Origin: Gemmata obscuriglobus
GTDB taxonomy: Bacteria; Planctomycetota; Planctomycetia; Gemmatales; Gemmataceae
DNA: 32,000 nucleotides
Direction of reading: 5' to 3'
Assembly (NCBI RefSeq): GCF_008065095.1
Contig: NZ_CP042911.1
Span: 7,350,001 to 7,382,000, forward strand
Position 1 is the stretch's first letter. Each line of letters opens with the position of its first letter. The notes beneath the pieces are model-generated. The model was not told the origin of the DNA. It saw only the letters and a program-made list of their open reading frames with translations, and searched no databases. This document shows positions 1-11,073 of the stretch, in pieces. The translations under genes and the position numbers were made by a program.

Positions 1-9
1 TGGTACATC

Positions 10-67
10 GTGCCCCGGGTGCGCGGGCGGCACTCACCGACCGCTCCCCGGATGGGGTGGGGGAAGG
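10..67 (+). repeat. Degenerate, shortened attC-like remnant at the window edge
   Basis: CACCGACCGCTCCCCGGATGGGGTGGGGG resembles the conserved 3' half GCACCGCTCATCCGGTGATGGCGGTGCAGG. No GTTCGGC core is retained. Confidence 0.25.
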
Positions 68-69
68 CG

Positions 70-153
70 ATGTTCCTTTGGCCGCTCCTCGCGGTGCTCG
101 GTTGCGGGTGCCTGTTGGACATCGCCCAGACAATCCGGGAGGCTTGCCGTTGA
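70..153 (+). CDS. 27-aa lipoprotein-like micro-ORF, or the 3' end of an ORF entering from the left edge (frame 1 is open from nt 1)
   Basis: ATG at 70 is preceded by GGGGGAAGG. It translates to MFLWPLLAVLGCGCLLDIAQTIREACR with a lipobox-like LGC. TGA is at 151-153, 42 nt before repeat 1. Confidence 0.25.
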   Translation: MFLWPLLAVLGCGCLLDIAQTIREACR

Positions 154-194
154 CCAGGCGGCGCTTGTGGGCGCTCGGCTGCAGCGATAGGCCC

Positions 195-281
195 GCCGAA
201 CCCGGCGCGGCGCCGGACACCGCCGGCTGAGTTGTGACGCACCGCTCATCCGGTGCTGGCGGTACAGGTGAGTTGTTCGGC
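195..281 (+). repeat. attC-like repeat 1 (canonical copy, 87 bp)
   Basis: GCCGAAC (195-201) ... GTTCGGC (275-281). Internal imperfect dyad: GCGCCGG/ACCGCC vs GGCGGT, and TGAG vs CTCA. Confidence 0.7.
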
Positions 282-301
282 CACAGGGAGGGTGGAGAGG
301 C

Positions 302-595
302 GTGGAAGATCTAAACCACGTGGGCATGCTCCTGTTTGCCTTCCTGCTGGTCTGGATCGCAGCCCCAGCGGCCGTCGCGGCGATCAAAGGGTACGAAGCG
401 TGGCCGTGGCTCCTCGCTTGCGGGGTGGCCGGGGTCGCGGCTCTGGCCTTCTTCCCGCGCGTGGGCACGGCCACCCCCGGCGCCACGCGGTGGCAGGGGC
501 GGGCCAGCCGGCTTGGGCTCGCACTCTCGGGCGTGCAACTGGCGGCATTCGGGGTGGCGTGTGCGGCGAGCGCGTGGCGCACCCACACCCGGTAG
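302..595 (+). CDS. Cassette 1: small integral membrane protein (97 aa), hypothetical
   Basis: GTG start follows GGGAGGGTGGAGAGG. Three hydrophobic helices are visible (LLFAFLLVWIAAPAAVAAI, WLLACGVAGVAALAFF, LALSGVQLAAFGVACAA). It stops 10 nt before repeat 2. Confidence 0.55.
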   Translation: MEDLNHVGMLLFAFLLVWIAAPAAVAAIKGYEAWPWLLACGVAGVAALAFFPRVGTATPGATRWQGRASRLGLALSGVQLAAFGVACAASAWRTHTR

Positions 596-604
596 CAAAG
601 ATCA

Positions 605-695
605 GCCGAACCCGGCACTACGCCTGACGCCGCCCGATATACTGGGACGCACCGCTCATCCGGGGGTGGCGGTGCCGGTGAGTTATTTGTTCAGC
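605..695 (+). repeat. attC-like repeat 2 (91 bp)
   Basis: GCCGAAC (605-611) ... GTTCAGC (689-695). The 3' half GACGCACCGCTCATCCGGGGGTGGCGGTGCCGGTGAGTTATTTG is conserved. Confidence 0.65.
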
Positions 696-711
696 GGCGG
701 AGGGCCTCCGG

Positions 712-1032
712 GTGGGCAAGGTGGTGAGCGGCGTGTTGGTACTCGTCGGCGTCGCGCTGTTCGCACGCGGCGGGTTCGATGCCTGGCTGTTCCTGGTCAC
801 CGAGGCGTGGGAGCGGCCGGACGTGGCCCGCGGGTTGGGCGGGGCCGCCGCCCTGGCGGTCGGCACCTACGGGCTGGTGCGGGGCGGCCGGGCCGAGGTC
901 GCTGACGAACTGCGGCGGCGGAACGTCGCGCTGGAGTTGGAGGTGCTGGCCCTGTCCGCCGAGTTGGGCCGCCGTCCGCCGCCCACCGGAGTTGGGGCGG
1001 CTCCGGGCGCCGAACCCAGCAAGGGCACCTGA
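712..1032 (+). CDS. Cassette 2: small membrane-anchored protein with a coiled-coil-like tail (106 aa), hypothetical
   Basis: GTG start is 7 nt after GGAGGG. It has an N-terminal TM segment (VVSGVLVLVGVALFA) and the heptad-like stretch ADELRRRNVALELEVLALSAEL. It terminates inside repeat 3 in the shared frame. Confidence 0.55.
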   Translation: MGKVVSGVLVLVGVALFARGGFDAWLFLVTEAWERPDVARGLGGAAALAVGTYGLVRGGRAEVADELRRRNVALELEVLALSAELGRRPPPTGVGAAPGAEPSKGT

Positions 1033-1101
1033 CACCGCCGGCTGATTCGGGACGCACTGCTGACGGTATCGTGGCGGTGCAGGTAAACTTGATCGTTCGG
1101 C
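1009..1101 (+). repeat. attC-like repeat 3 (93 bp)
   Basis: GCCGAAC (1009-1015) ... GTTCGGC (1095-1101). The GACACCGCCGGCTGA block is conserved. Confidence 0.65.
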
Positions 1102-1119
1102 GGCGGAGGCGGGGCGCGG

Positions 1120-1623
1120 ATGGTTGAAGCGGTGGGACGGGCGAGAGCGTTCGCGGTCGTCGCTCACGGTGAACAGCGGTATGGCGATCAGCCGTACTCC
1201 GTTCATCTCGATGCGGTCGCCGAGTTACTCGCGCCGTTCGGGGATGTAGCACAAGTCATCGGCTACCTGCACGATGTGGTCGAGGACACTGACGTGCCCC
1301 TTGATACAGTAAGGCAGGGATTCGGTGACCGCGTAGCCGCATGTGTGTCCTTGGTCACCGATGAGCCGGGAGCCAATCGACGAGAGCGAAAGGCGAAAAC
1401 CAACGCCAAGCTCTCGACGGTGTCAGGCGAAGAGTCGTTAGCTCTGGTCGTTAAAGCTGCCGACCGGTTGGCCAACCTTCGAGCGTCGGCCAGTAACGAT
1501 TCGGGCTCTAAGCTCGGCATGTACCGCCGTGAGCACCCGGCGTTTCGGGAGTCCGCATACCGGCCCGGGTTGTGCGATTCACTGTGGCGGGAGATGGATC
1601 GCATCTTGAGTGACGAGGCGTGA
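1120..1623 (+). CDS. Cassette 3: HD-domain protein of the RelA/SpoT hydrolase type (small alarmone hydrolase-like)
   Basis: AHGEQRYGDQPYSVHLDAVAELL ... YLHDVVEDT ... VVKAADRLANL match the His...HD...ED signature of (p)ppGpp pyrophosphohydrolase domains. The protein is 167 aa with no synthetase domain. Confidence 0.8.
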   Translation: MVEAVGRARAFAVVAHGEQRYGDQPYSVHLDAVAELLAPFGDVAQVIGYLHDVVEDTDVPLDTVRQGFGDRVAACVSLVTDEPGANRRERKAKTNAKLSTVSGEESLALVVKAADRLANLRASASNDSGSKLGMYRREHPAFRESAYRPGLCDSLWREMDRILSDEA

Positions 1624-1624
1624 C

Positions 1625-1721
1625 GCCGAACCGGTCCCTGCACCGGCCCCGGTCACGTAGTTTCTTTCCCATCGCTCAGCGGCTGGTTTCGATCACGCAG
1701 CAGGTGAGCGGTGAGTTCGGC
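1625..1721 (+). repeat. attC-like repeat 4 (97 bp, divergent interior)
   Basis: GCCGAAC (1625-1631) ... GTTCGGC (1715-1721). The cores are intact but the internal sequence is largely different from the other copies. Confidence 0.5.
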
Positions 1722-1735
1722 TGCGAGGGTCCCCG

Positions 1736-2029
1736 ATGGTCCCGGAGCGCGCCTTCACCCGCTGGTGCATCGCCCTATCGTTGTTGTGGGTCTTCGCCAA
1801 CTGGCCCTCGACCTCGGGTCTGGGCGGGTTCTGGCTGCACGCCGGGTTTCCGTTTACATTTGCGTGGGGCGCCTTCGGCCGCTTTGAGCATTTCGATGTG
1901 CGCCTCTTGCTCGCGGACGTGCTGTTCGGGCTCCTGACGGTCGTTGGAATTGCTTGGCTGTGCGCCCGGTCGCGTGGGCATCGATCGCCGCCCGCCGAAC
2001 CCGGCGCGGCACCGGACACCGCCGGCTGA
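1736..2029 (+). CDS. Cassette 4: small membrane protein (97 aa), hypothetical
   Basis: ATG is 7 nt after GAGGG. Hydrophobic segments are CIALSLLWVFANW and LLLADVLFGLLTVVGIAWL. It ends with the repeat-encoded AEPGAAPDTAG tail. Confidence 0.55.
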   Translation: MVPERAFTRWCIALSLLWVFANWPSTSGLGGFWLHAGFPFTFAWGAFGRFEHFDVRLLLADVLFGLLTVVGIAWLCARSRGHRSPPAEPGAAPDTAG

Positions 2030-2081
2030 TGCGGGCACCGCTCGTCCAGTGATGGCGATGCAGGTTGGCTCATAGTTCGGT
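1994..2081 (+). repeat. attC-like repeat 5 (canonical, 88 bp)
   Basis: GCCGAAC (1994-2000) ... GTTCGGT (2075-2081). Confidence 0.7.
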
Positions 2082-2096
2082 CCGGAGAAGTTCCTT

Positions 2097-3035
2097 ATGA
2101 TCCGTAGCCTTGTCGTCGGTGCGGCGCTTTTCGCCGGCTGGGTCGTCTCGGCCGACGAGCCGCGCCGTGCCCCCAGCGGGAATGCGTCCGTCAGGGGCAA
2201 GGCCGGTTCGTCCGAGATCGTCATCACCACCACCAACCGCCTCGCCGGAGCGATTCACTCGCTGACGTGGGGCGGCAAGGAGTTCATCGACAGCCACGAC
2301 CACGGGCGACAGCTCCAGTCGGCCGCCAGTTTCGACCGCGCGGCCGCGGGTGAGTTCTGGGCCGAGCGCTACAACCCAACGGAAGCGGGCTCGCGGGCGG
2401 ACGGCACCGGGGAGAAGACCTCCAGCCGGTTGCTGCGGCTCCGGGCCGAGGGGGCCGAACTGAAAACGACAACGCAGATGGCGTTCTGGCTCGCCCCCGG
2501 CGAGAAGTCCTTCGGCCGACCGGCTCTCAACGACAAGGTGCTGTCGGATCACCTCGTCGCGAAGCGCGTCCGCATCGGGCACAAGGCGCTCGCCCACGCC
2601 ATCGAGTACGAGGTCACGTTCTCGGTTCCAAAGGGCGAGCGGCACACCTACGCGCAGTTCGAAGCGCTGACGGGGTACATGCCCCCCGAGTTCGCCTCGT
2701 TCTGGACGTTCCGGCCGGACTCCGGCAAACTGGAGGAGCTGAGCGACGGCCCCGGCGAGCAGGAGTTCCCGGTCGTCTTCGCGACCGAGAGCAAGACCCA
2801 TGCGATGGGCGTGTTCTCCCCGGACCAGCCGTCGAACGGTTACAAGACGGCGGGCTACGGCCGCTTCCGGTTCAAGGAGGAGAAGGTGGTCAAGTGGAAC
2901 TGCGTCTTCCGAGTTCGGAACGATAAGGGCATTGCCGCCGACGAGTACCGCTTCCGCATGTTCATCGCCGTCGGCACCTTGGAAGACGTGAAGCGGACGC
3001 TGGCGGCGTTGACTCAGGAGTTCGCGGGGCGCTGA
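2097..3035 (+). CDS. Cassette 5: secreted hypothetical protein (312 aa)
   Basis: ATG follows GGAGAAG. The N-terminal signal-like sequence is MIRSLVVGAALFAGWVVSA. Codon third positions are G/C-rich throughout. I do not recognise a family. Confidence 0.7.
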   Translation: MIRSLVVGAALFAGWVVSADEPRRAPSGNASVRGKAGSSEIVITTTNRLAGAIHSLTWGGKEFIDSHDHGRQLQSAASFDRAAAGEFWAERYNPTEAGSRADGTGEKTSSRLLRLRAEGAELKTTTQMAFWLAPGEKSFGRPALNDKVLSDHLVAKRVRIGHKALAHAIEYEVTFSVPKGERHTYAQFEALTGYMPPEFASFWTFRPDSGKLEELSDGPGEQEFPVVFATESKTHAMGVFSPDQPSNGYKTAGYGRFRFKEEKVVKWNCVFRVRNDKGIAADEYRFRMFIAVGTLEDVKRTLAALTQEFAGR

Positions 3036-3132
3036 GATGAGGGGCGCGGCACCTGACGCGCGCCGCCGAGTCGCGTTCTGGGGCTTCATGCCCCACTGAC
3101 GCGGGCCGGGCCGGTGGGCGTCCTCGTTCGGC
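3034..3132 (+). repeat. attC-like repeat 6 with eroded R'' core
   Basis: GGCGCGGCACCTGAC (3043-3057) matches the canonical GGCGCGGCACCGGAC. GTTCGGC (3126-3132) is intact, but GCCGAAC is replaced by GAGATGA. Confidence 0.45.
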
Positions 3133-3148
3133 CACAGAGGTGCGACCG

Positions 3149-3415
3149 ATGGCGAAGCGGTTCCGGTGCCCGCGCTGCGGTTGCTTGACACTGGACGAGC
3201 GTTGCGACTGGGACGTTTGCGAGGTTTGCTATTGGGAAGACGACGGACAGGGCGACCACAACGCCGATGCGGTGCATGGCGGCTCGAACGGCGCGCTGCG
3301 CCTGACGCAGGCGCGGGCGAACTACCGGGCGTTCGGTGCGTGTGAGGAGGCCATGCGACCGCACGCGCGCCCGCCCCGACCGGACGAATTGCCTGACTCA
3401 CGGTCCGGCTGGTAG
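3149..3415 (+). CDS. Cassette 6: CPCC-family cysteine-rich protein
   Basis: FRCPRCGCLTLDERCDWDVCEVCYWEDDGQ...GGSNGALRLTQARANYRAFGA matches the CPCC-domain pattern (CPCC ... C.VC.WEDD ... G.N..SL..A..N). ATG at 3149 is 9 nt after AGAGG. The track start at 3140 (GTG) is the alternative. Confidence 0.8.
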   Translation: MAKRFRCPRCGCLTLDERCDWDVCEVCYWEDDGQGDHNADAVHGGSNGALRLTQARANYRAFGACEEAMRPHARPPRPDELPDSRSGW

Positions 3416-3418
3416 TAT

Positions 3419-3508
3419 CTGTTTCTTGTGGCACAGACATTCCTGTCTGTGCGGCGCGATAAGGCCGCACAGACAGGAATGTCTGTGCCACAAAGATAAA
3501 AACCAAAA
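3419..3508. repeat. Dispersed palindromic element, full-length copy (30-bp perfect stem)
   Basis: TTGTGGCACAGACATTCCTGTCTGTGCGGC (3426-3455), an 8-nt loop, then GCCGCACAGACAGGAATGTCTGTGCCACAA (3464-3493). The asymmetric flanks are CTGTTTC on the left and AGATAAAAACCAAAAC on the right. Confidence 0.9.
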
Positions 3509-3547
3509 CGGACAGCAACAGCCGGCTTGTGTATGAGCGAAACGTTC

Positions 3548-3617
3548 GCCGAACCAGGTAGCGTGTAGCCCGCGAGCGTCACCCAGCTCATCGTCCAGAG
3601 CCGCCGGGCCGAGGCGG
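3548..3617 (+). repeat. Partial or degenerate attC-like half-copy
   Basis: GCCGAAC (3548-3554) overlaps an inverse GTTCGCC (3544-3550). It is followed by CGTCACCCAGCTCATCGTCC, which resembles GACGCACCGCTCATCCGG. No own R' core is present. Confidence 0.3.
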
Positions 3618-3708
3618 ATCGAGCCCGGCGCTGCACCGGACACCGCCGCGGGGTTTGTGACACACCGCTCATCCGGTGATGGCGGTGCAGGTGAGTTATT
3701 TGTTCGGA
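3618..3708 (+). repeat. attC-like repeat 7 (R'' partly eroded, 91 bp)
   Basis: ATCGAGC replaces GCCGAAC. CCCGGCGCTGCACCGGACACCGCCG and the full 3' half are conserved. R' is GTTCGGA (3702-3708). Confidence 0.55.
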
Positions 3709-3723
3709 GAGGGAGGGCTCGCG

Positions 3724-4275
3724 GTGTCGCAGTCCCAGGCACAGCGCGTGTCACTGAGTTGGCCGGGCGGCGAGTCCCTCGACCCGACGCCCGACGAGGT
3801 GCTCGCGGTCATGGCGCTGCCCTACGGCGGGAACTGGGGGCCGTACCAGCCGGTCGGCGAGATCGAGTGGTTCGACCCAGCCCGGCCGCCGACGGCGGGC
3901 GGCCGACGGGAGCGGGCGGCGCAGCTTATCCTCATCCGGCACCCTGAGCGGGGGTGGTACTTCGAGTACGATGGCCCGTCCGGGCCGGGCGGCTCGGACG
4001 AGTGGCTGGCCCCGCTCGACCCGGCCGGGCCGCCGGGTCACCTGCGGCACTGGTGCTGGGGCGAGGAGCAGTGGTTCCGGGCGGCCAGCTTCGTCCCCGA
4101 CGTGACGGCCCGGCAAGTCGTGGCGGACTTCCTGGCGTCGGGGCGGCCGTCGGCCGCAATCACGTGGGCACCGCAGGGGGATGTCGGCTCCCGGTTGTAC
4201 GACGACGAGTACGCCGAGCGGTTCGGGCCGGCCCCGAACGCCGAACCCGGCGCGGCAGCAGACGACGGGGGCTGA
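3724..4275 (+). CDS. Cassette 7: hypothetical cytoplasmic protein (~183 aa)
   Basis: GTG at 3724 follows GAGAGGGAGGG. The ORF-track ATG at 3676 lies inside repeat 7 and is probably an artefact. The tail is a variant of the repeat-encoded peptide (AEPGAAADDGG). Confidence 0.55.
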   Translation: MSQSQAQRVSLSWPGGESLDPTPDEVLAVMALPYGGNWGPYQPVGEIEWFDPARPPTAGGRRERAAQLILIRHPERGWYFEYDGPSGPGGSDEWLAPLDPAGPPGHLRHWCWGEEQWFRAASFVPDVTARQVVADFLASGRPSAAITWAPQGDVGSRLYDDEYAERFGPAPNAEPGAAADDGG

Positions 4276-4331
4276 TTTTGTGACGCACCGCTCGTCCGGT
4301 GATGGCGGTTCAGGTGAGAGGTTTGTTTGGC
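4240..4331 (+). repeat. attC-like repeat 8 (92 bp)
   Basis: GCCGAAC (4240-4246) ... GTTTGGC (4325-4331). Confidence 0.7.
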
Positions 4332-4347
4332 ACCCAGAGGGCGGAGC

Positions 4348-4827
4348 ATGCGACCGATTCTCCACCTGCCCGCCGGCGCCCAGTTGGCGGACGACTCCAT
4401 CTCGCTTGCCGCGGAAGTTGACGACATGCGGCGGTTGTGGCTGCTGTTCCTGGCGATGGCGGTCCGGGACGAGGCGTGCGCAATCCGGTGGCAGCCTTGG
4501 GAGTCCGGCCACGCCCTTTCGTATACGGTCGGCGCGGTGCTTTACAGCTTGGTGGACCCGGGCGAGGAATTCGGCGCGGTCGCTTTCGAAGCGGCTCGGC
4601 GGTTGATCTCGCCGGGGCCGCGGGGGTGGCTCGCGCGGCAGTTGTTGCGAGCCGGGGCCGGGGTGTTGCGGTGTGAGTCGGAGTGGGGGCCATCGACGTG
4701 GCAAGGTGTGTGGTGGTCGGCGGGCGCCGCGACCGGTGTCGAGTTCGTGCGCCTGGATCGGTTCCCGGTACCACGATATCCCGTTGAGCCGGTCGTGGGG
4801 TCGGCATCGGGGCCGAGTCCGGGGTGA
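4348..4827 (+). CDS. Cassette 8: hypothetical protein (~159 aa)
   Basis: ATG at 4348 follows AGAGGGCGGAG. It stops 22 nt before repeat 9. Confidence 0.5.
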   Translation: MRPILHLPAGAQLADDSISLAAEVDDMRRLWLLFLAMAVRDEACAIRWQPWESGHALSYTVGAVLYSLVDPGEEFGAVAFEAARRLISPGPRGWLARQLLRAGAGVLRCESEWGPSTWQGVWWSAGAATGVEFVRLDRFPVPRYPVEPVVGSASGPSPG

Positions 4828-4849
4828 CCGATGCGGTGGGCGCGAGCGA

Positions 4850-4936
4850 GTCGCACCCGGCGCGGCACCGGACACCGTCGGCTGAGTTGTGACTACCGCC
4901 CGTCCGATGGTGGCGTAGGTGAGAGGTTTGTTCGAC
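4850..4936 (+). repeat. attC-like repeat 9 (87 bp) with a co-varying core pair
   Basis: GTCGCAC (4850-4856) ... GTTCGAC (4930-4936). The C-to-T change at core position 2 is matched by a G-to-A change in the partner core. Confidence 0.6.
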
Positions 4937-4948
4937 GGAGGGGCACCA

Positions 4949-5440
4949 ATGGGTTTCATTCCGAGGGGCGCGCGGTGGTATCTCGCCGATGTGGTGCTGG
5001 AACACCGGATCGATGGCGACGCTGAAAACCTTGTGCACGTCAACACACACCTGATCGAAGCCGGCACCCCTGATGTGGCCTACGACAAGGCCGTCGCCCT
5101 GGGACTCCAGCAGGAGCGGGAGTACGAGAACTCCGATGGCGGGCGGGTACGCGTTCTGTTCCGTGGACTGCGGGAGCTGAACGTCATTCACGAGCCGCTG
5201 GAGGACGGGGCGGAGATCATGTACACCGAGGACGTCGGCGTGCCGGAGGAGCGGCTGCGGGCGTGGAGCCGACCGCGGGAACAGTTGGGCGTGTTCCGCC
5301 CGATCGAGCCGCGTGCCGGCGGCCCGAATTGCCTGCCCGGTGTGTTCAAGCCACTCGTTGAAGGGGCCGAGCCGCCAGACGTGCCGGGTGCGGCCGTAAC
5401 GCAGGCCGAACCCGGCGCGGCACCGGACACCGCCGGTTGA
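4949..5440 (+). CDS. Cassette 9: DUF4288-like protein
   Basis: ARWYLADVVLEHRI...VNTHLIEAGTPDVAYDKAVALG...EYENSDGGRVRVLFRGLRELNVI..LEDGAEIMY follows the DUF4288 pattern as I remember it (WY..L......L..A...eA..KA......Y.N..G..V...F.G...L......G.E.Y). It carries the AEPGAAPDTAG tail. Confidence 0.7.
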   Translation: MGFIPRGARWYLADVVLEHRIDGDAENLVHVNTHLIEAGTPDVAYDKAVALGLQQEREYENSDGGRVRVLFRGLRELNVIHEPLEDGAEIMYTEDVGVPEERLRAWSRPREQLGVFRPIEPRAGGPNCLPGVFKPLVEGAEPPDVPGAAVTQAEPGAAPDTAG

Positions 5441-5495
5441 TACGGGACGCGCCGCTCGTCCGATGATGACGGTGCCGGTGAGAGGTTAGTTCAGC
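5405..5495 (+). repeat. attC-like repeat 10 (91 bp)
   Basis: GCCGAAC (5405-5411) ... GTTCAGC (5489-5495). Confidence 0.7.
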
Positions 5496-5507
5496 GGAGT
5501 GGCAACA

Positions 5508-5960
5508 ATGCGGCACGTTGGTTTCGTCTCGGTCGTCACGCTCCTTGTTCTCACGATTTCGAGCGGCCGTGCGGCCGATTTCCCATTGGCTCCCCCGCCC
5601 CGCCCGGTCGGTCCACCAACGGCCCCACGGCCACGTCCGGCCGGATTTACGGCTGAAAAGGCCAAGCAGGCTCTGATGAGATTGATGGAGACGCGCGACG
5701 AGGCGCCGGTCTGCCGCGCCGACCTCAAGACGTTCGGTGCGGTCGCAGCCAAAGTGGACCCAGATGATCTGGGTGTTGCACGCTGGGGGCCATTCACTCT
5801 CAACCTCGCCGACATGAGTTACCGGTTCCGAGTGGGTGGAGGAAAGCCCGGAGGGCCGGGCGGATTCTGGTTCATGGTGTATGAGGGCAAGTTCGAGCAA
5901 CAGGGCGGGAAGTGGGTTGCGTTGCCTTTCGAGATGGGAGAGCATGGCCGGGGGAGGTAG
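5508..5960 (+). CDS. Cassette 10: secreted Pro-rich hypothetical protein (~150 aa)
   Basis: ATG at 5508. The signal-like N-terminus is MRHVGFVSVVTLLVLTISSGRA. Its TAG stop abuts repeat 11. Confidence 0.6.
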   Translation: MRHVGFVSVVTLLVLTISSGRAADFPLAPPPRPVGPPTAPRPRPAGFTAEKAKQALMRLMETRDEAPVCRADLKTFGAVAAKVDPDDLGVARWGPFTLNLADMSYRFRVGGGKPGGPGGFWFMVYEGKFEQQGGKWVALPFEMGEHGRGR

Positions 5961-6068
5961 CCGGCACTCCGCACCGCCCCGAGGCTGACCGCCGCCGCAC
6001 CGGATCGCTGTTAAATGCGTTGTTTCACCGTGTGGCACATTCCGCGGCGGGTGAGTTTTATGTTCGGC
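5960..6068 (+). repeat. attC-like repeat 11 (109 bp, divergent)
   Basis: GCCGGCAC...CGCACCGCCCCGAGGCTGA resembles the canonical 5' half. The 3' end GGTGAGTTTTATGTTCGGCCACAGAGGG is canonical (GTTCGGC 6062-6068). Confidence 0.45.
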
Positions 6069-6085
6069 CACAGAGGGCGCAACGG

Positions 6086-6619
6086 ATGGCGGGCGTCTCG
6101 TTGGGTGCGTTGCCCGACTTCGAAGAGAATCGCGCGTACCGGGTGGCCCCTTACCTCCACGCGGCCGTCCTGCTCCAAACCGTTGGGGAGCAGGTAGCCC
6201 TTGAGACGCTGACGGCGCTTGCCGAAGACGAAGACCAAGGGCACAAGGTCATCATCCTGTGCCGAATGTTGTTCACCGCGCGGCGCGGTGGAGAGTTCCG
6301 GCGGCCAGCGATTGGTGTGCTCGGCCTCTATGGCGGGACTGAGGGTGCGGATTGGCCGCTTGAGCCGATCGCATGCGTCCGCGGGGTGCCGTTCCTCGTA
6401 TACCCCGCCCCGTACAAACTCCTCGCGGGGTTTCCGGAGCCGGGGAGTTGGTATCTCCGGTATTGTGCGGCCTCCTGCGCCTGGAGCAACGTCCAGTTTG
6501 CCCTCAAGAGCGACGCAGAGAAGGCTGAGGCATTGGGCGAGTTGTTGGCTTGTGGCAAGTGGCGAAGCCCGCTGGCCGACCATGAGGTTGAGGGGCTAGC
6601 TGCCCAAACCAGGCCCTGA
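6086..6619 (+). CDS. Cassette 11: hypothetical protein (~177 aa)
   Basis: ATG at 6086 follows CACAGAGGGCGCAACGG. The longer track ORF starting at 5912 reads through repeat 11 and overlaps the previous gene. Confidence 0.55.
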   Translation: MAGVSLGALPDFEENRAYRVAPYLHAAVLLQTVGEQVALETLTALAEDEDQGHKVIILCRMLFTARRGGEFRRPAIGVLGLYGGTEGADWPLEPIACVRGVPFLVYPAPYKLLAGFPEPGSWYLRYCAASCAWSNVQFALKSDAEKAEALGELLACGKWRSPLADHEVEGLAAQTRP

Positions 6620-6629
6620 GCAAAGGCAG

Positions 6630-6719
6630 GCCGAACCCGGCGCGACACCTGACCCGCCGGCTGAATTATGACGCACCGCGGATCGGGACGGCGCGGCGCC
6701 GGTGGGCCGTATGCTCGGC
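6630..6719 (+). repeat. attC-like repeat 12 (90 bp)
   Basis: GCCGAAC (6630-6636) ... GCTCGGC (6713-6719). The 5' half is canonical and the 3' half has diverged. Confidence 0.6.
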
Positions 6720-6763
6720 GGCGGAGGGGCGAGGGTGGACGAGGCACAGACGGGCGAGGCGGC

Positions 6764-7177
6764 ATGACTCCGAAGGCGATCGAGACGTTCAGCACGTTCG
6801 GGGTTGGCGTGCTGTGTGCCGTCCTGGGCATCATCGCGCTGGCCGTGTTCTTCACGGCCCTGAACTGGCTTAACACCCGTGGGGCCAAGCCGGAGGCGAT
6901 TGCCGTCCGCGGGGTGTTGAAGAAGGACACCTGGGCCGCCGTCCACATGCAGGGCGGGGAGACGTTCGAGCGGGTCCGGTTTGTCGGGTTCACAAGCACC
7001 GAGAGCTTCAAGACGCTCTTACCCATGGACCTCAGCGGCATGGTCATCCTGGAGGACGCACTCGGGCGGCGGTTCCTGGTCCGGGCCAGAGCGATTCGCA
7101 TGATCGTCATCGCCCCGGCGGCCGCCGGGGGCGCCCCAAGCGCCAAACCCGGCGCTGTACTTGACGCCACCGGCTGA
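6764..7177 (+). CDS. Cassette 12: N-terminally membrane-anchored hypothetical protein (~137 aa)
   Basis: ATG at 6764 follows GAGGCGGC. The TM segment is FGVGVLCAVLGIIALAVFFTAL. It ends inside repeat 13 in the shared frame (SAKPGAVLDATG). Confidence 0.55.
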   Translation: MTPKAIETFSTFGVGVLCAVLGIIALAVFFTALNWLNTRGAKPEAIAVRGVLKKDTWAAVHMQGGETFERVRFVGFTSTESFKTLLPMDLSGMVILEDALGRRFLVRARAIRMIVIAPAAAGGAPSAKPGAVLDATG

Positions 7178-7217
7178 CTCGGGACGCACCGCTCATCGTG
7201 TGAGGGCGGCGTTGGAG
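7142..7217 (+). repeat. attC-like repeat 13 (last copy, degenerate and shortened)
   Basis: GCCAAACCCGGCGCTGTACTTGACGCCACCGGCTGA plus GGGACGCACCGCTCATCG are recognisable. The R' core is reduced to GTTGGAG (7211-7217). Confidence 0.4.
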
Positions 7218-7232
7218 GTCACGGAGGTGCCG

Positions 7233-7709
7233 ATGTTTCGAAGTCTCGGGCGGTGGCTGTGGTTCTTTGCCCTCGCGTGTGGCACCGTTGGGGTGTACGG
7301 GCTGGCGGACCTCGGCACCGCGGAGCCGGCTGGTAAGCTGCTGCTGGTCGGGCCGCACGCGGCGGGCGTCGCGGTGGCCGCCGGTGTCGGCCGTCGGCGG
7401 GCGGCGGCCGGGTTGGTCGCGGTCGCGGGCTCCGCGACAATGGCGGGCTTGTCCTGGGTAGATGCTCTGGACCGGCAAGCCGAGGGGTTCGAGTGGCGGT
7501 TCAACAACGCCCTGTCCGGAGCCACGTTCTGCGTGGCCAACTGGTTCGTGCTGGCGGTCGTCGGGTGTGTGGCGCTGGTCCTGTCCGACACGGCCGCGGC
7601 GCCCGCGACGCCGTTAGGAGCGGGGCCGGGCGAGGAAGGAGCGGCCTCATGTACGAGCGATACGATGATGTGCCGTGGTATCGCAAGTCGCCACACGTCA
7701 GCCTCATGA
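7233..7709 (+). CDS. Membrane protein after the last repeat (~158 aa), hypothetical
   Basis: ATG at 7233 follows ACGGAGGTGCCG. It has multiple hydrophobic segments. Its 3' end overlaps the next ORF by 61 nt, so the true stop or frame is uncertain. Confidence 0.45.
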   Translation: MFRSLGRWLWFFALACGTVGVYGLADLGTAEPAGKLLLVGPHAAGVAVAAGVGRRRAAAGLVAVAGSATMAGLSWVDALDRQAEGFEWRFNNALSGATFCVANWFVLAVVGCVALVLSDTAAAPATPLGAGPGEEGAASCTSDTMMCRGIASRHTSAS

Positions 7710-7930
7710 CGCTCGGCGGCATTTTCTTCGGCTTCGCGCTCGTGGCCGTTTGCATCCTCGTCTTGACCGGCAACGTGTACTCCAGGAAGCGAGACGCGAA
7801 CGGCAAATTGAAGGTGTGGGGAATCGGGAACAAGGTTGCGGCGGTCATCCTCCTCGTGTTGTACTGCGTGCTGCTCGCTCGTCAGTTCGGAGCATTCGGC
7901 GATCCGGTGCCAGCGGCGCCCGAGGGGTGA
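7649..7930 (+). CDS. Small two-TM membrane protein (93 aa), hypothetical
   Basis: A strong RBS GAGGAAGGAG lies 8 nt upstream of the ATG at 7649. The sequence reads MYERYDDVPWYRKSPHVSLMTLGGIFFGFALVAVCILVL ... VAAVILLVLYCVLLA. Confidence 0.6.
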   Translation: MYERYDDVPWYRKSPHVSLMTLGGIFFGFALVAVCILVLTGNVYSRKRDANGKLKVWGIGNKVAAVILLVLYCVLLARQFGAFGDPVPAAPEG

Positions 7931-8229
7931 CCGCCTTCGAGCGGTCGGCGAAGTTGGCGTGTACTGGCACGCGCTGCCTCAAAGCGGCCCGCGTGTGTCC
8001 CATCGCGAGCGGTCGTAACTACTACCGTGGGCGCCTATGGCGGCCGATTCCGGAAGGTCCCAGGGCAACGGCCTGACGCAAGCGGACGCTTGACAATCCC
8101 GGGAGCGGGCTCGCGTTGCGAGTCTGGCTGACGGCGGTCGATTCGGTATCAAGGACGGCAAGGCCGCTGTCGTCGGTGCCGGGCTCCGACCCGGCGGGCG
8201 GCCGGTGCGGCCGGGTGAGGACGCACTGA

Positions 8230-9633
8230 ATGCCCCACGTTGTTGTCGTCGGTGGGGGGCTGTCCGGCCTTACGGTCGCCCTCCGGCTGAAGCAGTTCTC
8301 CCCCGGCACGGCGGTGACCGTGCTGGAACCGCGGGACCGGCCGGGCGGGAACATTCACACCGAGTCGGACCGCGGGTTCCGCGTCGAGCACGGCCCGAAC
8401 GGCTACCTCGACCGCACGCCCGCCCTCCCCAACCTCGTGCGCGATCTGGGATTGGCGGACCAAGAGATCGCGGCCAGCGACGGCAGCCGCAAGAACCGCT
8501 ACGTCTTCCTCCGCAACAAGTTGCGCAAGCTGCCGGGCGGCCCGCTCGGGCTCCTCACCACGTCCCTCCTGTCCCTCCGCGGCAAATGGCAGCTCCTGGC
8601 CGAACCGTGGCGCAAAACGCCGCCGCCGAAACACGAGGAGACGATTCAGGAGTTCGTCACGCGGCGCGCCGGTTCGGAAGCGGCAAACGTGTTCGCCGAC
8701 GCGCTCGTGACCGGCATTCACGGCGGCGATCCGGCCATGCTCAGCGTGTCCGCCGCGTTTCCCCGGTTGCCGGTCATGGAGCGCGACGCCGGCAGCATCG
8801 TCCGCGGCTTCATGCGCGCCGCCAAGAAGCGGAAAGAGGACGCGAAAGCCAACAACCAGCCGCCGCCCGGCCCGATGCGGATGTGGTCGTTCCGCGACGG
8901 GTTGCAGGTGCTGGTGGACGCCCTGGCCGCACAGGTCGGCGGCGGGTTGCATTGCGGCACCCGGGTCGAAGCGGTGTCCGAGGCGGCGGGCGTGGCGCCG
9001 TGGACCGTTCACGGGCAGTCGGGGTACACGTGGTCCGCGGACGCGGTGGTGCTGGCGTGCCCGTCCTACGAGCAGGCCGGGATCGTGTCGGACATCAGCC
9101 CCGAACTGAGCGCGGAAATGGCGGCGATCCCGTACAACCGGATCGCGGTGGTGGCGCTGGGCTACCGGGCGGAGCACTGCCCCGGGAAGCACGACGGGTT
9201 CGGGTACATCGCCCCGCAGAACACCCGGCGCGATTTGCTGGGCGTGCAGTGGTGCTCGTCGATCTTCCCGGACCGCGCCCCGCAGGGGTTCGTGCTGTGG
9301 CGGGCGCTGTGCGGCGGCGTTCACCGGGCGGAGCAGATCGACTGGCCGGACGAGCAACTGGTAAAGGCGGTCCACGCGGAAATCACGCTGGCGATGGGCG
9401 TGACCGGCGCGCCCGTGTTCAAGAAGGTCGTGCGCTGGCCCAACGCAATCCCGCAGTACGTGCTGGGGCACCTCGACCGCGTCGCGCGGATCGACGAGTT
9501 GGCGTCGCGCCACCCGGGGCTGTTCCTGACGGGCAACTCGTACCGCGGGGTCGCGATGGCCGACTGCGTGGAACAGGGCGAGGCGGTCGCGGCGAAGGTC
9601 GCGCTGCACCTCCAGCAGGCCAAGCCGAGGTGA
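8230..9633 (+). CDS. hemY: Protoporphyrinogen/coproporphyrinogen III oxidase (HemY-type, FAD-dependent)
   Basis: N-terminal VVVVGGGLSGL dinucleotide-binding motif. It is 467 aa long with typical PPOX blocks (GGNI.T...GF..E.GPN ... FLTGNSYRGVAMADCV). Confidence 0.85.
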   Translation: MPHVVVVGGGLSGLTVALRLKQFSPGTAVTVLEPRDRPGGNIHTESDRGFRVEHGPNGYLDRTPALPNLVRDLGLADQEIAASDGSRKNRYVFLRNKLRKLPGGPLGLLTTSLLSLRGKWQLLAEPWRKTPPPKHEETIQEFVTRRAGSEAANVFADALVTGIHGGDPAMLSVSAAFPRLPVMERDAGSIVRGFMRAAKKRKEDAKANNQPPPGPMRMWSFRDGLQVLVDALAAQVGGGLHCGTRVEAVSEAAGVAPWTVHGQSGYTWSADAVVLACPSYEQAGIVSDISPELSAEMAAIPYNRIAVVALGYRAEHCPGKHDGFGYIAPQNTRRDLLGVQWCSSIFPDRAPQGFVLWRALCGGVHRAEQIDWPDEQLVKAVHAEITLAMGVTGAPVFKKVVRWPNAIPQYVLGHLDRVARIDELASRHPGLFLTGNSYRGVAMADCVEQGEAVAAKVALHLQQAKPR

Positions 9634-9636
9634 GCC

Positions 9637-10359
9637 GTGATCTTGCGCAAGCGCTGGGAACAGGGGCACAGCGCCGGTGAGATGATGCGCTCGGCGCTGC
9701 ACTGGGCCAAAAACCCGGAGCGCAAAGCGCGACTCTACCGCGCGGCCTTGGTGCGCGAGGTGTGGGACGAGTTGCCGTGGCTCAGCCAAGTGCTGACCGA
9801 ACTCGCCGAGCGCCAGGCCGACGGTGAAGACGTGGAGGCGCAACTGGCCTGCCCACTGGAGTACCTCGCGGAAGGCGTTTATTTCAGTGCGCTCGGCGAC
9901 GGAATAACGAAGCACTTTCCGAACAAGTTGTTTGAAGACTACGAGCGTTACTTGATCGACGCAGGCTATTCCAAGCCGTCCGACGCGAACGATGCCGCCG
10001 CGCGCCTCACCCCTGAACGCCTTGAGGCTATCACTTGGCTGGCTTACAGCCAGCACTTCGCATGGCCCTGCCCCCGCGACTGGAGCGCGGGCCGGGGACA
10101 AGATTCCACCCCCATTCTCCGCGACATCTTCGGCAACCCGTTCCGCCCGGTCACGTTCTCACCCGCCTGGCGCACCGGCACTACTATCGCTCTTGCGGCG
10201 CAGATGTACGAGTCGCGTGACTTCGGCGCGATGCCGATTCTGGCCGACGCGCTCCAAGATGCGGGCTGCGACTCGGACGACATCCTGAGCCACTGCCGCG
10301 GTGAGGGACCGCACGCGCGCGGGTGTTGGGTGGTCGATCTGGTGCTGGGCAAAGGGTAA
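9637..10359 (+). CDS. Conserved hypothetical protein with a C-terminal LADALQDAGC....L.HCRG.GPH.RGCWVVDL motif
   Basis: It starts 3 nt after the hemY stop. From memory, the C-terminal motif recurs in many Gemmata and myxobacterial paralogous hypothetical proteins. Confidence 0.65.
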   Translation: MILRKRWEQGHSAGEMMRSALHWAKNPERKARLYRAALVREVWDELPWLSQVLTELAERQADGEDVEAQLACPLEYLAEGVYFSALGDGITKHFPNKLFEDYERYLIDAGYSKPSDANDAAARLTPERLEAITWLAYSQHFAWPCPRDWSAGRGQDSTPILRDIFGNPFRPVTFSPAWRTGTTIALAAQMYESRDFGAMPILADALQDAGCDSDDILSHCRGEGPHARGCWVVDLVLGKG

Positions 10360-10363
10360 CTGA

Positions 10364-10786
10364 TCAAACGGCCCAGTCTTCCCACGACAGGCCGGGAACA
10401 CGGGCAAAGTCGCGTGCGTTGTTGGTAACAACCGTCGCGCCGACCTCAAGCGCAACGGCTGCCATCTTCAGGTCCATCTTACCAACGTTCAGCTTCAGCT
10501 TGACGAGTCGATCGAAGCGATCGAGCGCGGCCTCGGTCGTCGGGAGCACGGCGAACCGAGCGAGCAACCCCATCGCATCCGCGAGCGCCTGGGCCGCTTG
10601 CCCTTCCTGGGTAGTCGTCTTGGCTCGGCGGAGAAGCGCGAACCACCCACCAACCACCTCCTCCACGTTCACGGTGGTCACCCCAAGGGTATCGGTCGCG
10701 TGTGCGACGACCGCGGCCGTAACCCGGGTGTGCCGCCGCTGGAGCAAGGTCAGGGTGGTGGTGTCGAGCAAGTAAAGCGCCATCAC
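10364..10786 (-). CDS. vapC: PIN-domain ribonuclease toxin (VapC-like)
   Basis: LLDTTTL (N-terminal acidic residue), internal E/D positions, and VVTNNARDF near the C-terminus. The protein is ~139 aa. Its start overlaps the upstream small ORF's stop (GTGATG). Confidence 0.8.
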   Translation of the reverse strand: MMALYLLDTTTLTLLQRRHTRVTAAVVAHATDTLGVTTVNVEEVVGGWFALLRRAKTTTQEGQAAQALADAMGLLARFAVLPTTEAALDRFDRLVKLKLNVGKMDLKMAAVALEVGATVVTNNARDFARVPGLSWEDWAV

Positions 10787-11073
10787 CCGGCGGCCGGCAC
10801 GGTGTTGTTCTGCCGCCGATACTCCTCAACCTCGCGCGCCCAGTCCTCGAACAGCGGGCTCTCGCCCACCTTCCGCGCGGCGTCGACAACCGCGGTTGCG
10901 TCCGTAACCGTCACCGCGCGGACTTGCCCGCTGTGGAGCCGCGCGGCGATCAGCGAGCGAAGCGCGTCCACAGCCTCGTCTGGTGTGGAACCGTCGGCGG
11001 TGAGATCAAACGGACTGCCCGCCGACGCGCGAAACCCGACCTGTTGCGGCGACACGAGTACGGGAAGTTCCAT
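10783..11073 (-). CDS. Putative cognate antitoxin (96 aa)
   Basis: It lies directly upstream of vapC and is translationally coupled to it (stop/start overlap). It is small and acidic. The family was not recognised from sequence alone. Confidence 0.6.
   Translation of the reverse strand: MELPVLVSPQQVGFRASAGSPFDLTADGSTPDEAVDALRSLIAARLHSGQVRAVTVTDATAVVDAARKVGESPLFEDWAREVEEYRRQNNTVPAAG

Follow-up and report, generated by a model that had tools for sequence, protein, structure and literature searches.

The window considered here is a 32,000-nt stretch of the Gemmata obscuriglobus genome (contig NZ_CP042911.1, positions 7,350,001 to 7,382,000). Its left part carries a one-way series of repeated recombination sites of the attC kind, each preceded by a small open reading frame (ORF). 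We assign this locus with high confidence to the CALINs, that is, attC site clusters that lack an integron-integrase (Cury et al. 2016, PMC4889954); it is an integron gene-cassette array without an integrase of its own. Together with the sequence on the left of the window, the array comprises eighteen clustered attC sites, the gaps between them being below 4 kb (the largest about 1.6 kb), with no IntI, the integron integrase, within 4 kb. The arrangement of a complete integron, with intI next to the attachment site attI and the cassettes, is absent, as neither intI nor a remnant of it is present at the locus. An earlier reading of the window from its sequence only had left the choice between a sedentary chromosomal integron and a CALIN; the latter holds and the former falls with the lack of intI. 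Those checks proposed by that reading which were carried out all favoured it. Elements of this kind are already known, and CALINs and a complete integron have already been tabulated for this very assembly.

The repeat and its distribution

The repeat is an imperfect palindrome of about 90 nt, GCCGAAC…GTTCGGC. Thirteen copies lie between positions 195 and 7215 of the window, all in the same orientation, which agrees with the 13–14 one-way copies counted by the sequence-only reading. The 36-nt 5' consensus of the repeat yields four matches with at most three mismatches, against none in shuffled sequences. A covariance model, R1, was built from thirteen copies with the structure supplied by hand; it yields eleven sites in the interval 195–7230 at E≤2e-4. 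The two divergent sites (3041–3132 and 5961–6068) were recognised by eye, each having GTTCGGC and the inner dyad. The start-to-start spacing of the window sites is 369–1047 nt, and each is preceded by one small plus-strand ORF, as had been described. One cassette of the array, left of the window, has a minus-strand ORF. Clustered regularly interspaced short palindromic repeats, tandem repeats and miniature inverted-repeat transposable elements (MITEs) were rejected as readings of the repeat, given the 369–1047 nt spacings, a different ORF in each interval and no terminal inverted repeats around the units.

The protein of the ORF at 1120–1623 is encoded on G. obscuriglobus CP025958.1 (GCA_003149495.1) and on the draft contig ABGO01000118.1. 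The reversed region 660,257–680,760 of CP025958.1 (L001) reaches the first nucleotide of the window at its nt 8882 and provides 8.9 kb of additional sequence on the left. The array had been predicted to continue past the left edge, and it does: it runs 3.3 kb further, with five sites at L001 6020, 6478, 7218, 7891 and 8576, the minus-strand ORF being at L001 6121–6399. The whole array occupies about 11 kb (approximately CP025958.1 663,950–675,167), with eighteen sites and about twenty cassettes, between a 360-aa membrane-protein gene adjoining purF on one side and hemY on the other.

Outside these limits the repeat was not found. With the filters off, R1 produced no copy above 15 bits in window 7300–32000 or in L001 1–5590. 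A second G. obscuriglobus locus, L124, reached via a paralogue of the protein beside hemY, is likewise free of them, and R1 detects no attC in 20.7 kb of the syntenic region (L125) of Gemmata sp. SH-PL17. Dispersal among ordinary genes in both orientations, the behaviour of repetitive extragenic palindromes and bacterial interspersed mosaic elements (REP/BIME), which the sequence-only reading had named as fatal to its proposal, is thus seen in none of these four regions, the repeat being confined to the array.

In this array the outer boxes of the sites vary. The pair GCCGAAC and GTTCGGC, said earlier to bound every copy, is indeed the family consensus, but exact GCCGAAC and exact GTTCRGC occur together in only four window copies; the others have single-nucleotide variants or lack one box. 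R'' is absent at 3041 and 5961 and partly at 3618, and R' is absent at 7142. Over the array, the R boxes are perfectly complementary in seven of the eighteen sites. Three or four sites of the eighteen have no R'', one has GTT changed to GCT, one has lost R', and one cassette has lost its attC entirely. Hence the array is partly decaying.

Structure of the sites and integrases of related arrays

On the top strand, the 5' part of a site consists of GCCGAAC, a 9-nt spacer CCGGCGCnG, CACC(T/G)G, a single A, CACCGCC and a centre of about 32 nt; the 3' part consists of GGCGGTG, C(A/C)GGTG, a spacer of about 8 nt and GTTCGGC. The layout is that of attC: a 6-bp stem, one extrahelical base, a 7-bp stem, the variable centre and the mirror arm. 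The extra A of the top strand is a bulged T on the bottom strand, located on the R''-L'' arm between the 6-bp and 7-bp stems. This position is T in 77 of 80 Gemmataceae sites. The '' arm exceeds the ' arm by 2 nt, the case for a second extrahelical base being ambiguous. In canonical attC sites the extrahelical bases are likewise on the R''-L'' arm, and the letter consensus is RYYYAAC for R'' at the 5' end and GTTRRRY for R' at the 3' end, the two being mutually complementary. AAC and GTT are each present in 70–75 of the 80 sites, bearing out the proposed attC layout, and the R box is 92.8% paired. Position 4 of the core, as had been noticed, is G/C instead of Y/R, so that the letter consensus is not exactly matched, but the complementarity is kept. 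The most conserved part of the site is its 30-nt 5' half.

Pairing was assessed in 139 distinct sites, comprising copies from Gemmataceae. Paired cells make up 89.7%, against 25–41% with the partners slid, and there are 318 cells with compensatory double changes, against 119±9 in shuffles (0/500), both counts being inflated by a 140-site alignment fitted to the model structure. The R box keeps its sequence, and the inner stem switches among CG, GC and AU. On these counts the palindrome, with its L boxes and inner stem, is conserved as a secondary structure more than as a sequence, a hallmark of attC sites.

The matches listed for an 18-base pattern include many Gemmataceae contigs, and a metagenome scan added twelve more; R1 finds co-oriented arrays in nearly all of these. 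In three contigs, L033 (a metagenome-assembled genome of Gemmata sp.), L044 and L131, a tblastn probe located integrase genes beside the arrays. The probe, IntI1, was used for locating candidates only, every match then being verified with NCBIfam. The TIGR02249 scores (cutoff 265) are 398.7 bits for L033, 347.9 for L044 and 449.7 for L131, the last being full length (1–315 of 315). The L033 protein aligns without gaps to VchIntIA (2A3V) through the IntI-specific insertion and is about 70% identical to many proteins named integron integrase from soil and freshwater Proteobacteria such as Methylomonas. The IntI proteins beside Gemmata-type arrays are about 54% identical to IntI1. In all three contigs intI is co-directional with the cassettes, the first cassette starts 150–250 bp past the intI stop codon, and the junctions read …CATGTT(CGGC/ATGG) or …GTTAGGC. 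Since the arrays adjoin intI in these contigs, the sites are physically linked to IntI, and we infer that an integron integrase would recombine them as folded single strands.

Some of these integrases are damaged. The L033 (1204–2058) and L044 (1080–1817) genes lack about 45–70 N-terminal residues of IntI, and the latter reads MIDTHV where MIYTHV is expected, the catalytic Tyr being replaced by Asp. In L138, which has a 17-site array, tblastn gives a 31-aa IntI-like match at a distance of about 1.1 kb from one end of the array. Although its bin is Alcaligenaceae, L044 holds a Gemmata-type attC of 106 bits, and may be mis-binned. The presumed attI region of L131 (3460–3700, minus strand), between the full-length intI and the first cassette, contains four copies of the palindrome GTGTTAGTCCGCGCnnnGCGCGGACTAAC, and L033 and L044 have in common another palindrome, GATTGCGCCGGCGCAATC, about 10–15 nt before the crossover. 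Both palindromes are candidate IntI-binding or regulatory sites.

At the G. obscuriglobus locus itself, tblastn with two Gemmata-type IntI proteins gave no match at E≤5 in the 5.6 kb left of the array or in the 24.8 kb on its right, extending the earlier observation that no integrase was in view. No ORF of at least 70 aa in the L001 stretch left of the first cassette (5.6 kb, to purF) has any Pfam domain. A search for attI at the array start yielded a best local alignment to the L033 attI region with score 21, the shuffled mean being 20.8. Hence the sequence left of nt 1, where the sequence-only reading had suggested to look for intI and attI, yielded no intI by tblastn and only attI similarity at the shuffled level. 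Of the best 120 homologues of L033 IntI, examined for the G. obscuriglobus IntI, none is encoded on a 9-Mb contig.

For the assembly GCF_003149495.1, Table S3 of IntegronFinder 2.0 has four CALINs, their attC counts being 39, 47, 133 and 48, and a complete integron of 78 sites, which gives 345 sites in total (Néron et al. 2022, PMC9024848). G. massiliana appears in the same table with a CALIN, and Frigoriglobus tundricola with both a CALIN and a complete integron (PMC9024848). Gemmata cassette arrays are thus on record already, if only as rows of a table. An earlier survey of intI-containing genomes did not list Gemmata (PMC2426708). According to this table the genome does contain an integron with its intI, whose absence, together with an array invariant among related strains, would have counted, in the sequence-only reading, against its own proposal. 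The same reading had warned that standard attC models may miss such sites; in general this is probably wrong, because IntegronFinder reports 345 of them here, although the 18-site array may have been missed by the tabulation.

From established integron biology, the bottom strand of an attC site would fold into a hairpin, the IntI tyrosine recombinase would bind its R and L boxes and cut at G|TT, and recombination between two attC sites would excise the cassette as a circle that could be reinserted at attI. As there is no intI, attI or cassette promoter Pc at the locus, catalysis would have to be provided in trans, and movement of these cassettes would need such an IntI. The likely source is the complete integron reported elsewhere in the genome. 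By analogy, the sites may fold on the bottom strand in vivo, may be recognised by IntI and may be active at present.

Cassette turnover and rival explanations

Circular excision followed by reinsertion predicts that the R'' of a site matches the 5' end of its own cassette. In six cassettes with variant cores (two each in L044, L131 and L138), the sequence complemented by R'' is the TTxxxx with which its own cassette begins at the 5' end; the adjacent R' is not complemented. When all informative neighbours are counted, R'' matches the own 5' end in 19 cases, against seven for the adjacent R'.

Gemmata sp. JC717 (L126) has an array at the same site, upstream of hemY. The blocks in common correspond to window 1623–2088, 2075–5482 and 7629–10358 and are 91–96% identical. 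JC717 has an extra cassette (154 aa and a short unrelated attC) between the attC at 1994 and the 312-aa cassette, the homology breaking at …G|TTCGG… on both sides. It lacks the four cassettes of window 5483–7628, and its upstream cassettes are all different. The cassette differences and the indel at G|TT thus point to recombinase-type turnover since the split of G. obscuriglobus and JC717. Crossover at G|TT is supported both by the variant-core cassettes and by the JC717 extra cassette; exceptions on the R'' side exist and are considered below.

In the corresponding region of SH-PL17, a more distant relative than JC717, purF is followed by the 360-aa membrane-protein gene, a single gene of 154 aa, hemY and the gene after hemY. 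The gene order is kept but there is no attC in 20.7 kb, hence the site is empty in SH-PL17. The sequence-only reading had expected related genomes to differ by whole units with breakpoints at G|TT, and JC717 conforms to this. A cassette at L001 7357–7884 recurs in another Gemmata array, L053, with 91% nucleotide identity and different neighbours, the homology starting from R'.

At its start (L126 1370–1450) the JC717 array has no more than a 3' attC half (…GGTGATGCCGGTGCAGGTGGTTGTATGTTCGGC), which immediately follows an unrelated gene with an aspartic-protease domain. Since an array begins here with a half attC beside an unrelated gene, Gemmata arrays have evidently been cut by rearrangements.

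The best surviving rival explanation is that of a relic: the sites would be attC by descent, and the array, no longer recombined, would be eroding. We consider this possible and lean against it. The R boxes are imperfect or missing in 11 of the 18 sites, and the GTT changed to GCT, the lost L'-R' and the lost attC are what erosion would leave; moreover, intI beside related arrays is often damaged (the N-termini in L033 and L044, the Tyr-to-Asp change in L044, the 31-aa match in L138). However, G. obscuriglobus and JC717 are 91–96% identical, yet at least five cassettes differ in the common part and all upstream ones differ, and at least one indel falls exactly at G|TT. A complete integron is reported in the same genome, and seven sites are intact.

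A second explanation, which we consider rather unlikely, retains the sites and replaces the enzyme: the arrays would owe their differences mainly to recombination, RecA-type or by slippage, between the conserved 5' repeat halves. It is suggested by two re-assortments of ORFs and attC sites. The attC at 1625–1721 is 91% identical to its JC717 counterpart, while the upstream ORFs are not the same (HD_4 in one, SMI1_KNR4 in the other) and GCCGAAC is the exact point from which the homology runs. Conversely, L001 7357–7981 and L053 1956–2578 have the same ORF (91%) with unrelated attC interiors. A deletion between the conserved 5' halves of neighbouring sites would produce such re-assortment, and the 30-nt 5' half is where conservation is highest. 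On the other hand, the JC717 extra cassette is bounded by G|TT on both sides though its attC shares almost no sequence with the neighbouring one, and homologous exchange would not generate the circular-cassette rule that holds for the six variant-core cassettes.

An extension of the CALIN assignment, which we put forward as a doubtful proposition only, is that of a Gemmataceae-specific attC family (GTTCGGC core, long spacer, single invariant extrahelical T) with re-assortment of ORFs and attC sites at R'' as well as at G|TT. If this is true, and if the re-assortment is site-specific and not a chance microhomology deletion, Gemmata arrays would record cassette assembly, that is, the joining of an ORF to a pre-existing attC. 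How cassettes are assembled is an open question in integron biology.

It is very improbable that the repeats are REP/BIME-like intergenic palindromes, serving as terminators or mRNA stabilisers and unrelated to integrons. In favour of it, the palindromes are imperfect, rich in GC and located where ORFs end, and single isolated copies exist in some genomes, for instance in L081 and L093. Against this, the 24.8 kb on the right, the 5.6 kb on the left, L124 and the syntenic SH-PL17 region contain no copies, all copies strictly point the same way, IntI genes border the arrays in three contigs, cassette indels break at G|TT, and R'' matches the 5' end of its own cassette.

Least credible of all is a complete sedentary chromosomal integron with the integrase just outside the sequence examined: eighteen sites are many for a CALIN, and in relatives IntI stands at the 5' end of the array, the side that runs off the window, but L001 covers 5.6 kb past the first cassette up to purF, conserved and syntenic in SH-PL17, and with no tblastn match at E≤5, no Pfam domain in left-flank ORFs of at least 70 aa and an array start resembling the L033 attI region at the shuffled level, this explanation is refuted for the 4-kb and 10-kb defining distances.

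Several observations, besides the fitted alignment behind the pairing counts, weigh against the assignment of the locus as a CALIN. The core is GTTCGGC and not GTTRRRY, and the unpaired spacer, 8–9 nt, is longer than in the textbook attC. Covariation among the thirteen best copies of the array itself is not significant, and RNAalifold applied to thirteen sites did not recover the R box. Bottom-strand DNA folds of single sites have z from -4.8 to +1.0 over the eighteen sites and reach -2 or lower in six of them; such folds are weak evidence because shuffles of 70% GC sequence fold well too. The bottom-strand folding considered in the sequence-only reading is favoured by the paired structure and the bulged T in 77 of 80 sites. 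G·T and A·C mismatches number 74 and 79, giving no signal for which strand folds. There is no IntI in the 42 kb examined around the array, and the existence of intI in G. obscuriglobus rests on a supplementary table. None of the five elements in that table has 18 attC sites, and the table gives no coordinates, so that the array is matched to none of its rows. Finally, the two ORF-attC re-assortments have their breakpoint on the R'' side and are not produced by G|TT recombination alone.

Cassettes, flanking genes and comparison with known systems

On the left side of the array, a lone GTTCGGC at L001 5594 stands before the first cassette ORF (L001 5618–6010). The 3.3 kb between the membrane-protein gene and this ORF contain no integrase, transposase or any Pfam domain. 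A perfect 35-nt direct repeat (L001 2863–2897 and 2935–2969, 72 nt apart) is located in this unannotated stretch, which SH-PL17 lacks entirely.

All cassette ORFs and sites of the window are given on the plus strand, the minus strand being the recombinogenic bottom strand of attC. The window opens with the 3' end (1–153) of a cassette ORF begun on its left (L001 8687–9034, 115 aa, no Pfam match). The first attC (195–281, GCCGAAC…GTTCGGC, 97.3 bits, bottom-strand DNA fold z=-2.3) is followed by an ORF of 89–97 aa without a known domain (302–595) and an attC with R' GTTCAGC (605–695, 91.5 bits). The next ORF, of 106 aa (712–1032), ends inside its attC (1009–1101, 79.1 bits, fold z=-2.9). The 167-aa ORF at 1120–1623 encodes a RelA/SpoT-type HD hydrolase domain (HD_4, PF13328, with a partial TIGR00691 match); its attC (1625–1721) is divergent, with 30.5 bits, its counterpart in JC717 being the site at L126 3570–3666.

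A 97-aa ORF (1736–2029) runs into the attC at 1994–2081 (R' GTTCGGT, 86.3 bits) and ends in …AEPGAAPDTAG*; the JC717 extra cassette is inserted exactly after the G of this R'. The 312-aa ORF (2097–3035) has no known domain. The site after it (3041–3132, R' GTTCGGC, no recognisable R'') is one of those identified by eye, and its JC717 counterpart, L126 5530–5629, scores 26 bits. The 88-aa ORF at 3149–3415 matches Cys_rich_CPCC (PF14206). The same cassette holds, past the stop codon of the ORF and before its attC, a hairpin at 3420–3500 that is lower in GC and whose stem, about 34 bp long, is nearly perfect (RNA fold -83.2 kcal/mol, z=-12.4). It was the only copy among 123 loci and was later found by blastn to be conserved in JC717 (L126 5923–5990); it may represent a terminator, what is left of a MITE, or a site bound by a protein.

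The attC of the CPCC cassette (3618–3708, 95.4 bits) has a degenerate R'' ATCGAGC and R' GTTCGGA, with an orphan GCCGAAC at 3546–3552. An ORF of up to 199 aa (3676–4275), with a weak Imm1 match under the cutoff, ends in the attC at 4240–4331 (R' GTTTGGC, 79.8 bits). It is followed by a 159-aa ORF with no known domain (4348–4827), an attC with R'' GTCGCAC and R' GTTCGAC (4850–4936, 75.4 bits), and a 163-aa ORF encoding DUF4288 (4949–5440, PF14119) that ends in the attC at 5405–5495 (R' GTTCAGC, 100.2 bits). In JC717 the 93-aa ORF that closes the array (window 7649–7930) stands directly after the latter site.

The next three ORFs are absent from JC717: that of 150 aa with a signal-peptide-like N-terminus (5508–5960), that of 177 aa (6086–6619) and that of 137 aa (6764–7177). 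The attC of the first (5961–6068) is divergent or degenerate, has R' GTTCGGC, no clear R'' and a weak fold, and was recognised by eye. The attC of the second (6630–6719, 77.5 bits) has a mutated crossover triplet, R' being GCTCGGC. The third ends in a truncated attC (7142–7210, 48.5 bits), in which R''-L'' and the centre are kept and, by comparison with a Gemmata algarum cassette, about 20 nt including L'-R' are deleted.

Contrary to the earlier placement of its end at 7217, the array continues beyond this site. The ORF at 7233–7709 is 74% identical to the G. algarum cassette, which has attC on both sides, and hence is a cassette whose own attC was deleted; it is fused to the preceding unit. 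The array closes with the 93-aa ORF at 7649–7930, which in JC717 stands right behind the R' (GTCCGGC) of an attC.

Cargo is unrelated among cassettes and its function is mostly unknown, with no resistance genes. Apart from HD_4, Cys_rich_CPCC, DUF4288 and the sub-threshold Imm1, no cassette ORF has a Pfam or NCBIfam match, and the ORFs are usually without an evident promoter. Five of the eighteen ORFs are read in frame into attC (the overlaps are window 1009–1032, 1994–2029, 4240–4275, 5405–5440 and 7142–7177) and use its conserved TGA, acquiring the C-terminal tail AEPGAAPDTAG or a variant of it. It is the recombination site, not the cargo, that encodes this tail.

The right flank begins with hemY (8230–9633, plus strand), as had been stated; it encodes protoporphyrinogen oxidase (TIGR00562, 308.8 bits at a cutoff of 97.85), lies outside the array and is syntenic in SH-PL17 and JC717. 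The gene right after it (9637–10359) encodes a C-terminal domain of about 80 aa (…RGCWVVDLVLGKG) with no Pfam match. This domain is also encoded just upstream of attC sites in the Gemmata arrays L053, L114 and L060, and G. massiliana L093 encodes it three times. Its homologues number in the thousands, and some bear the name SMI1/KNR4. On the minus strand, 2.4 kb past the array end, a PIN-domain gene and its 96-aa upstream partner (10364–11073, L001 19245–19954) look like a VapBC-type toxin-antitoxin pair. SH-PL17 keeps the 96-aa partner and has a 46-aa ORF instead of the PIN gene, and in JC717 there is no PIN call at that position.

The presence of real integron cassette arrays in the very large Gemmata genomes is confirmed. 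The analysis also yields a concrete description of the Gemmata attC family, a usable covariance model, and the set of an empty site, a shared site and an indel at G|TT. This makes the Gemmataceae a tractable system outside the Proteobacteria for the origin and decay of integrase-less arrays and for their cassette exchange with a complete integron of the same genome. The type of element being established, the understanding of integrons is unchanged.

The locus resembles other CALINs in having two or more attC sites of one orientation, with intI missing from the 4 kb around them (here from 10 kb as well), in the cargo of mostly unknown function, in the presence of a complete integron and other CALINs in the genome, and in the lack of a nearby intI pseudogene, as in 95% of CALINs. 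It differs in size, with 18 sites against about 5–6 in the average CALIN. With the sedentary chromosomal integrons of Vibrio and Xanthomonas it shares a long chromosomal array, a homogeneous lineage-specific attC family, and a fixed site common to close relatives with variable cassette content. Unlike them, it has no intI, attI or Pc; GTTCGGC/GCCGAAC serves as the core, and a longer spacer separates the R box from the next stem.

The inverted-integrase layout is that of the Treponema denticola type (Boucher et al. 2007, as cited in PMC4889954 and PMC2426708). The related contigs L033, L044 and L131 share it, as their intI is immediately upstream of the cassettes and in the same direction. However, IntI of the L033 type is close to proteobacterial IntIs and does not belong to a distant lineage, and the window has no integrase. 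Finally, REP/BIME elements are similar in being GC-rich imperfect palindromes after stop codons. They are dispersed genome-wide in both orientations, whereas the Gemmata repeats occur in arrays only and in one direction, have a link to IntI, and mark off units gained or lost as wholes.

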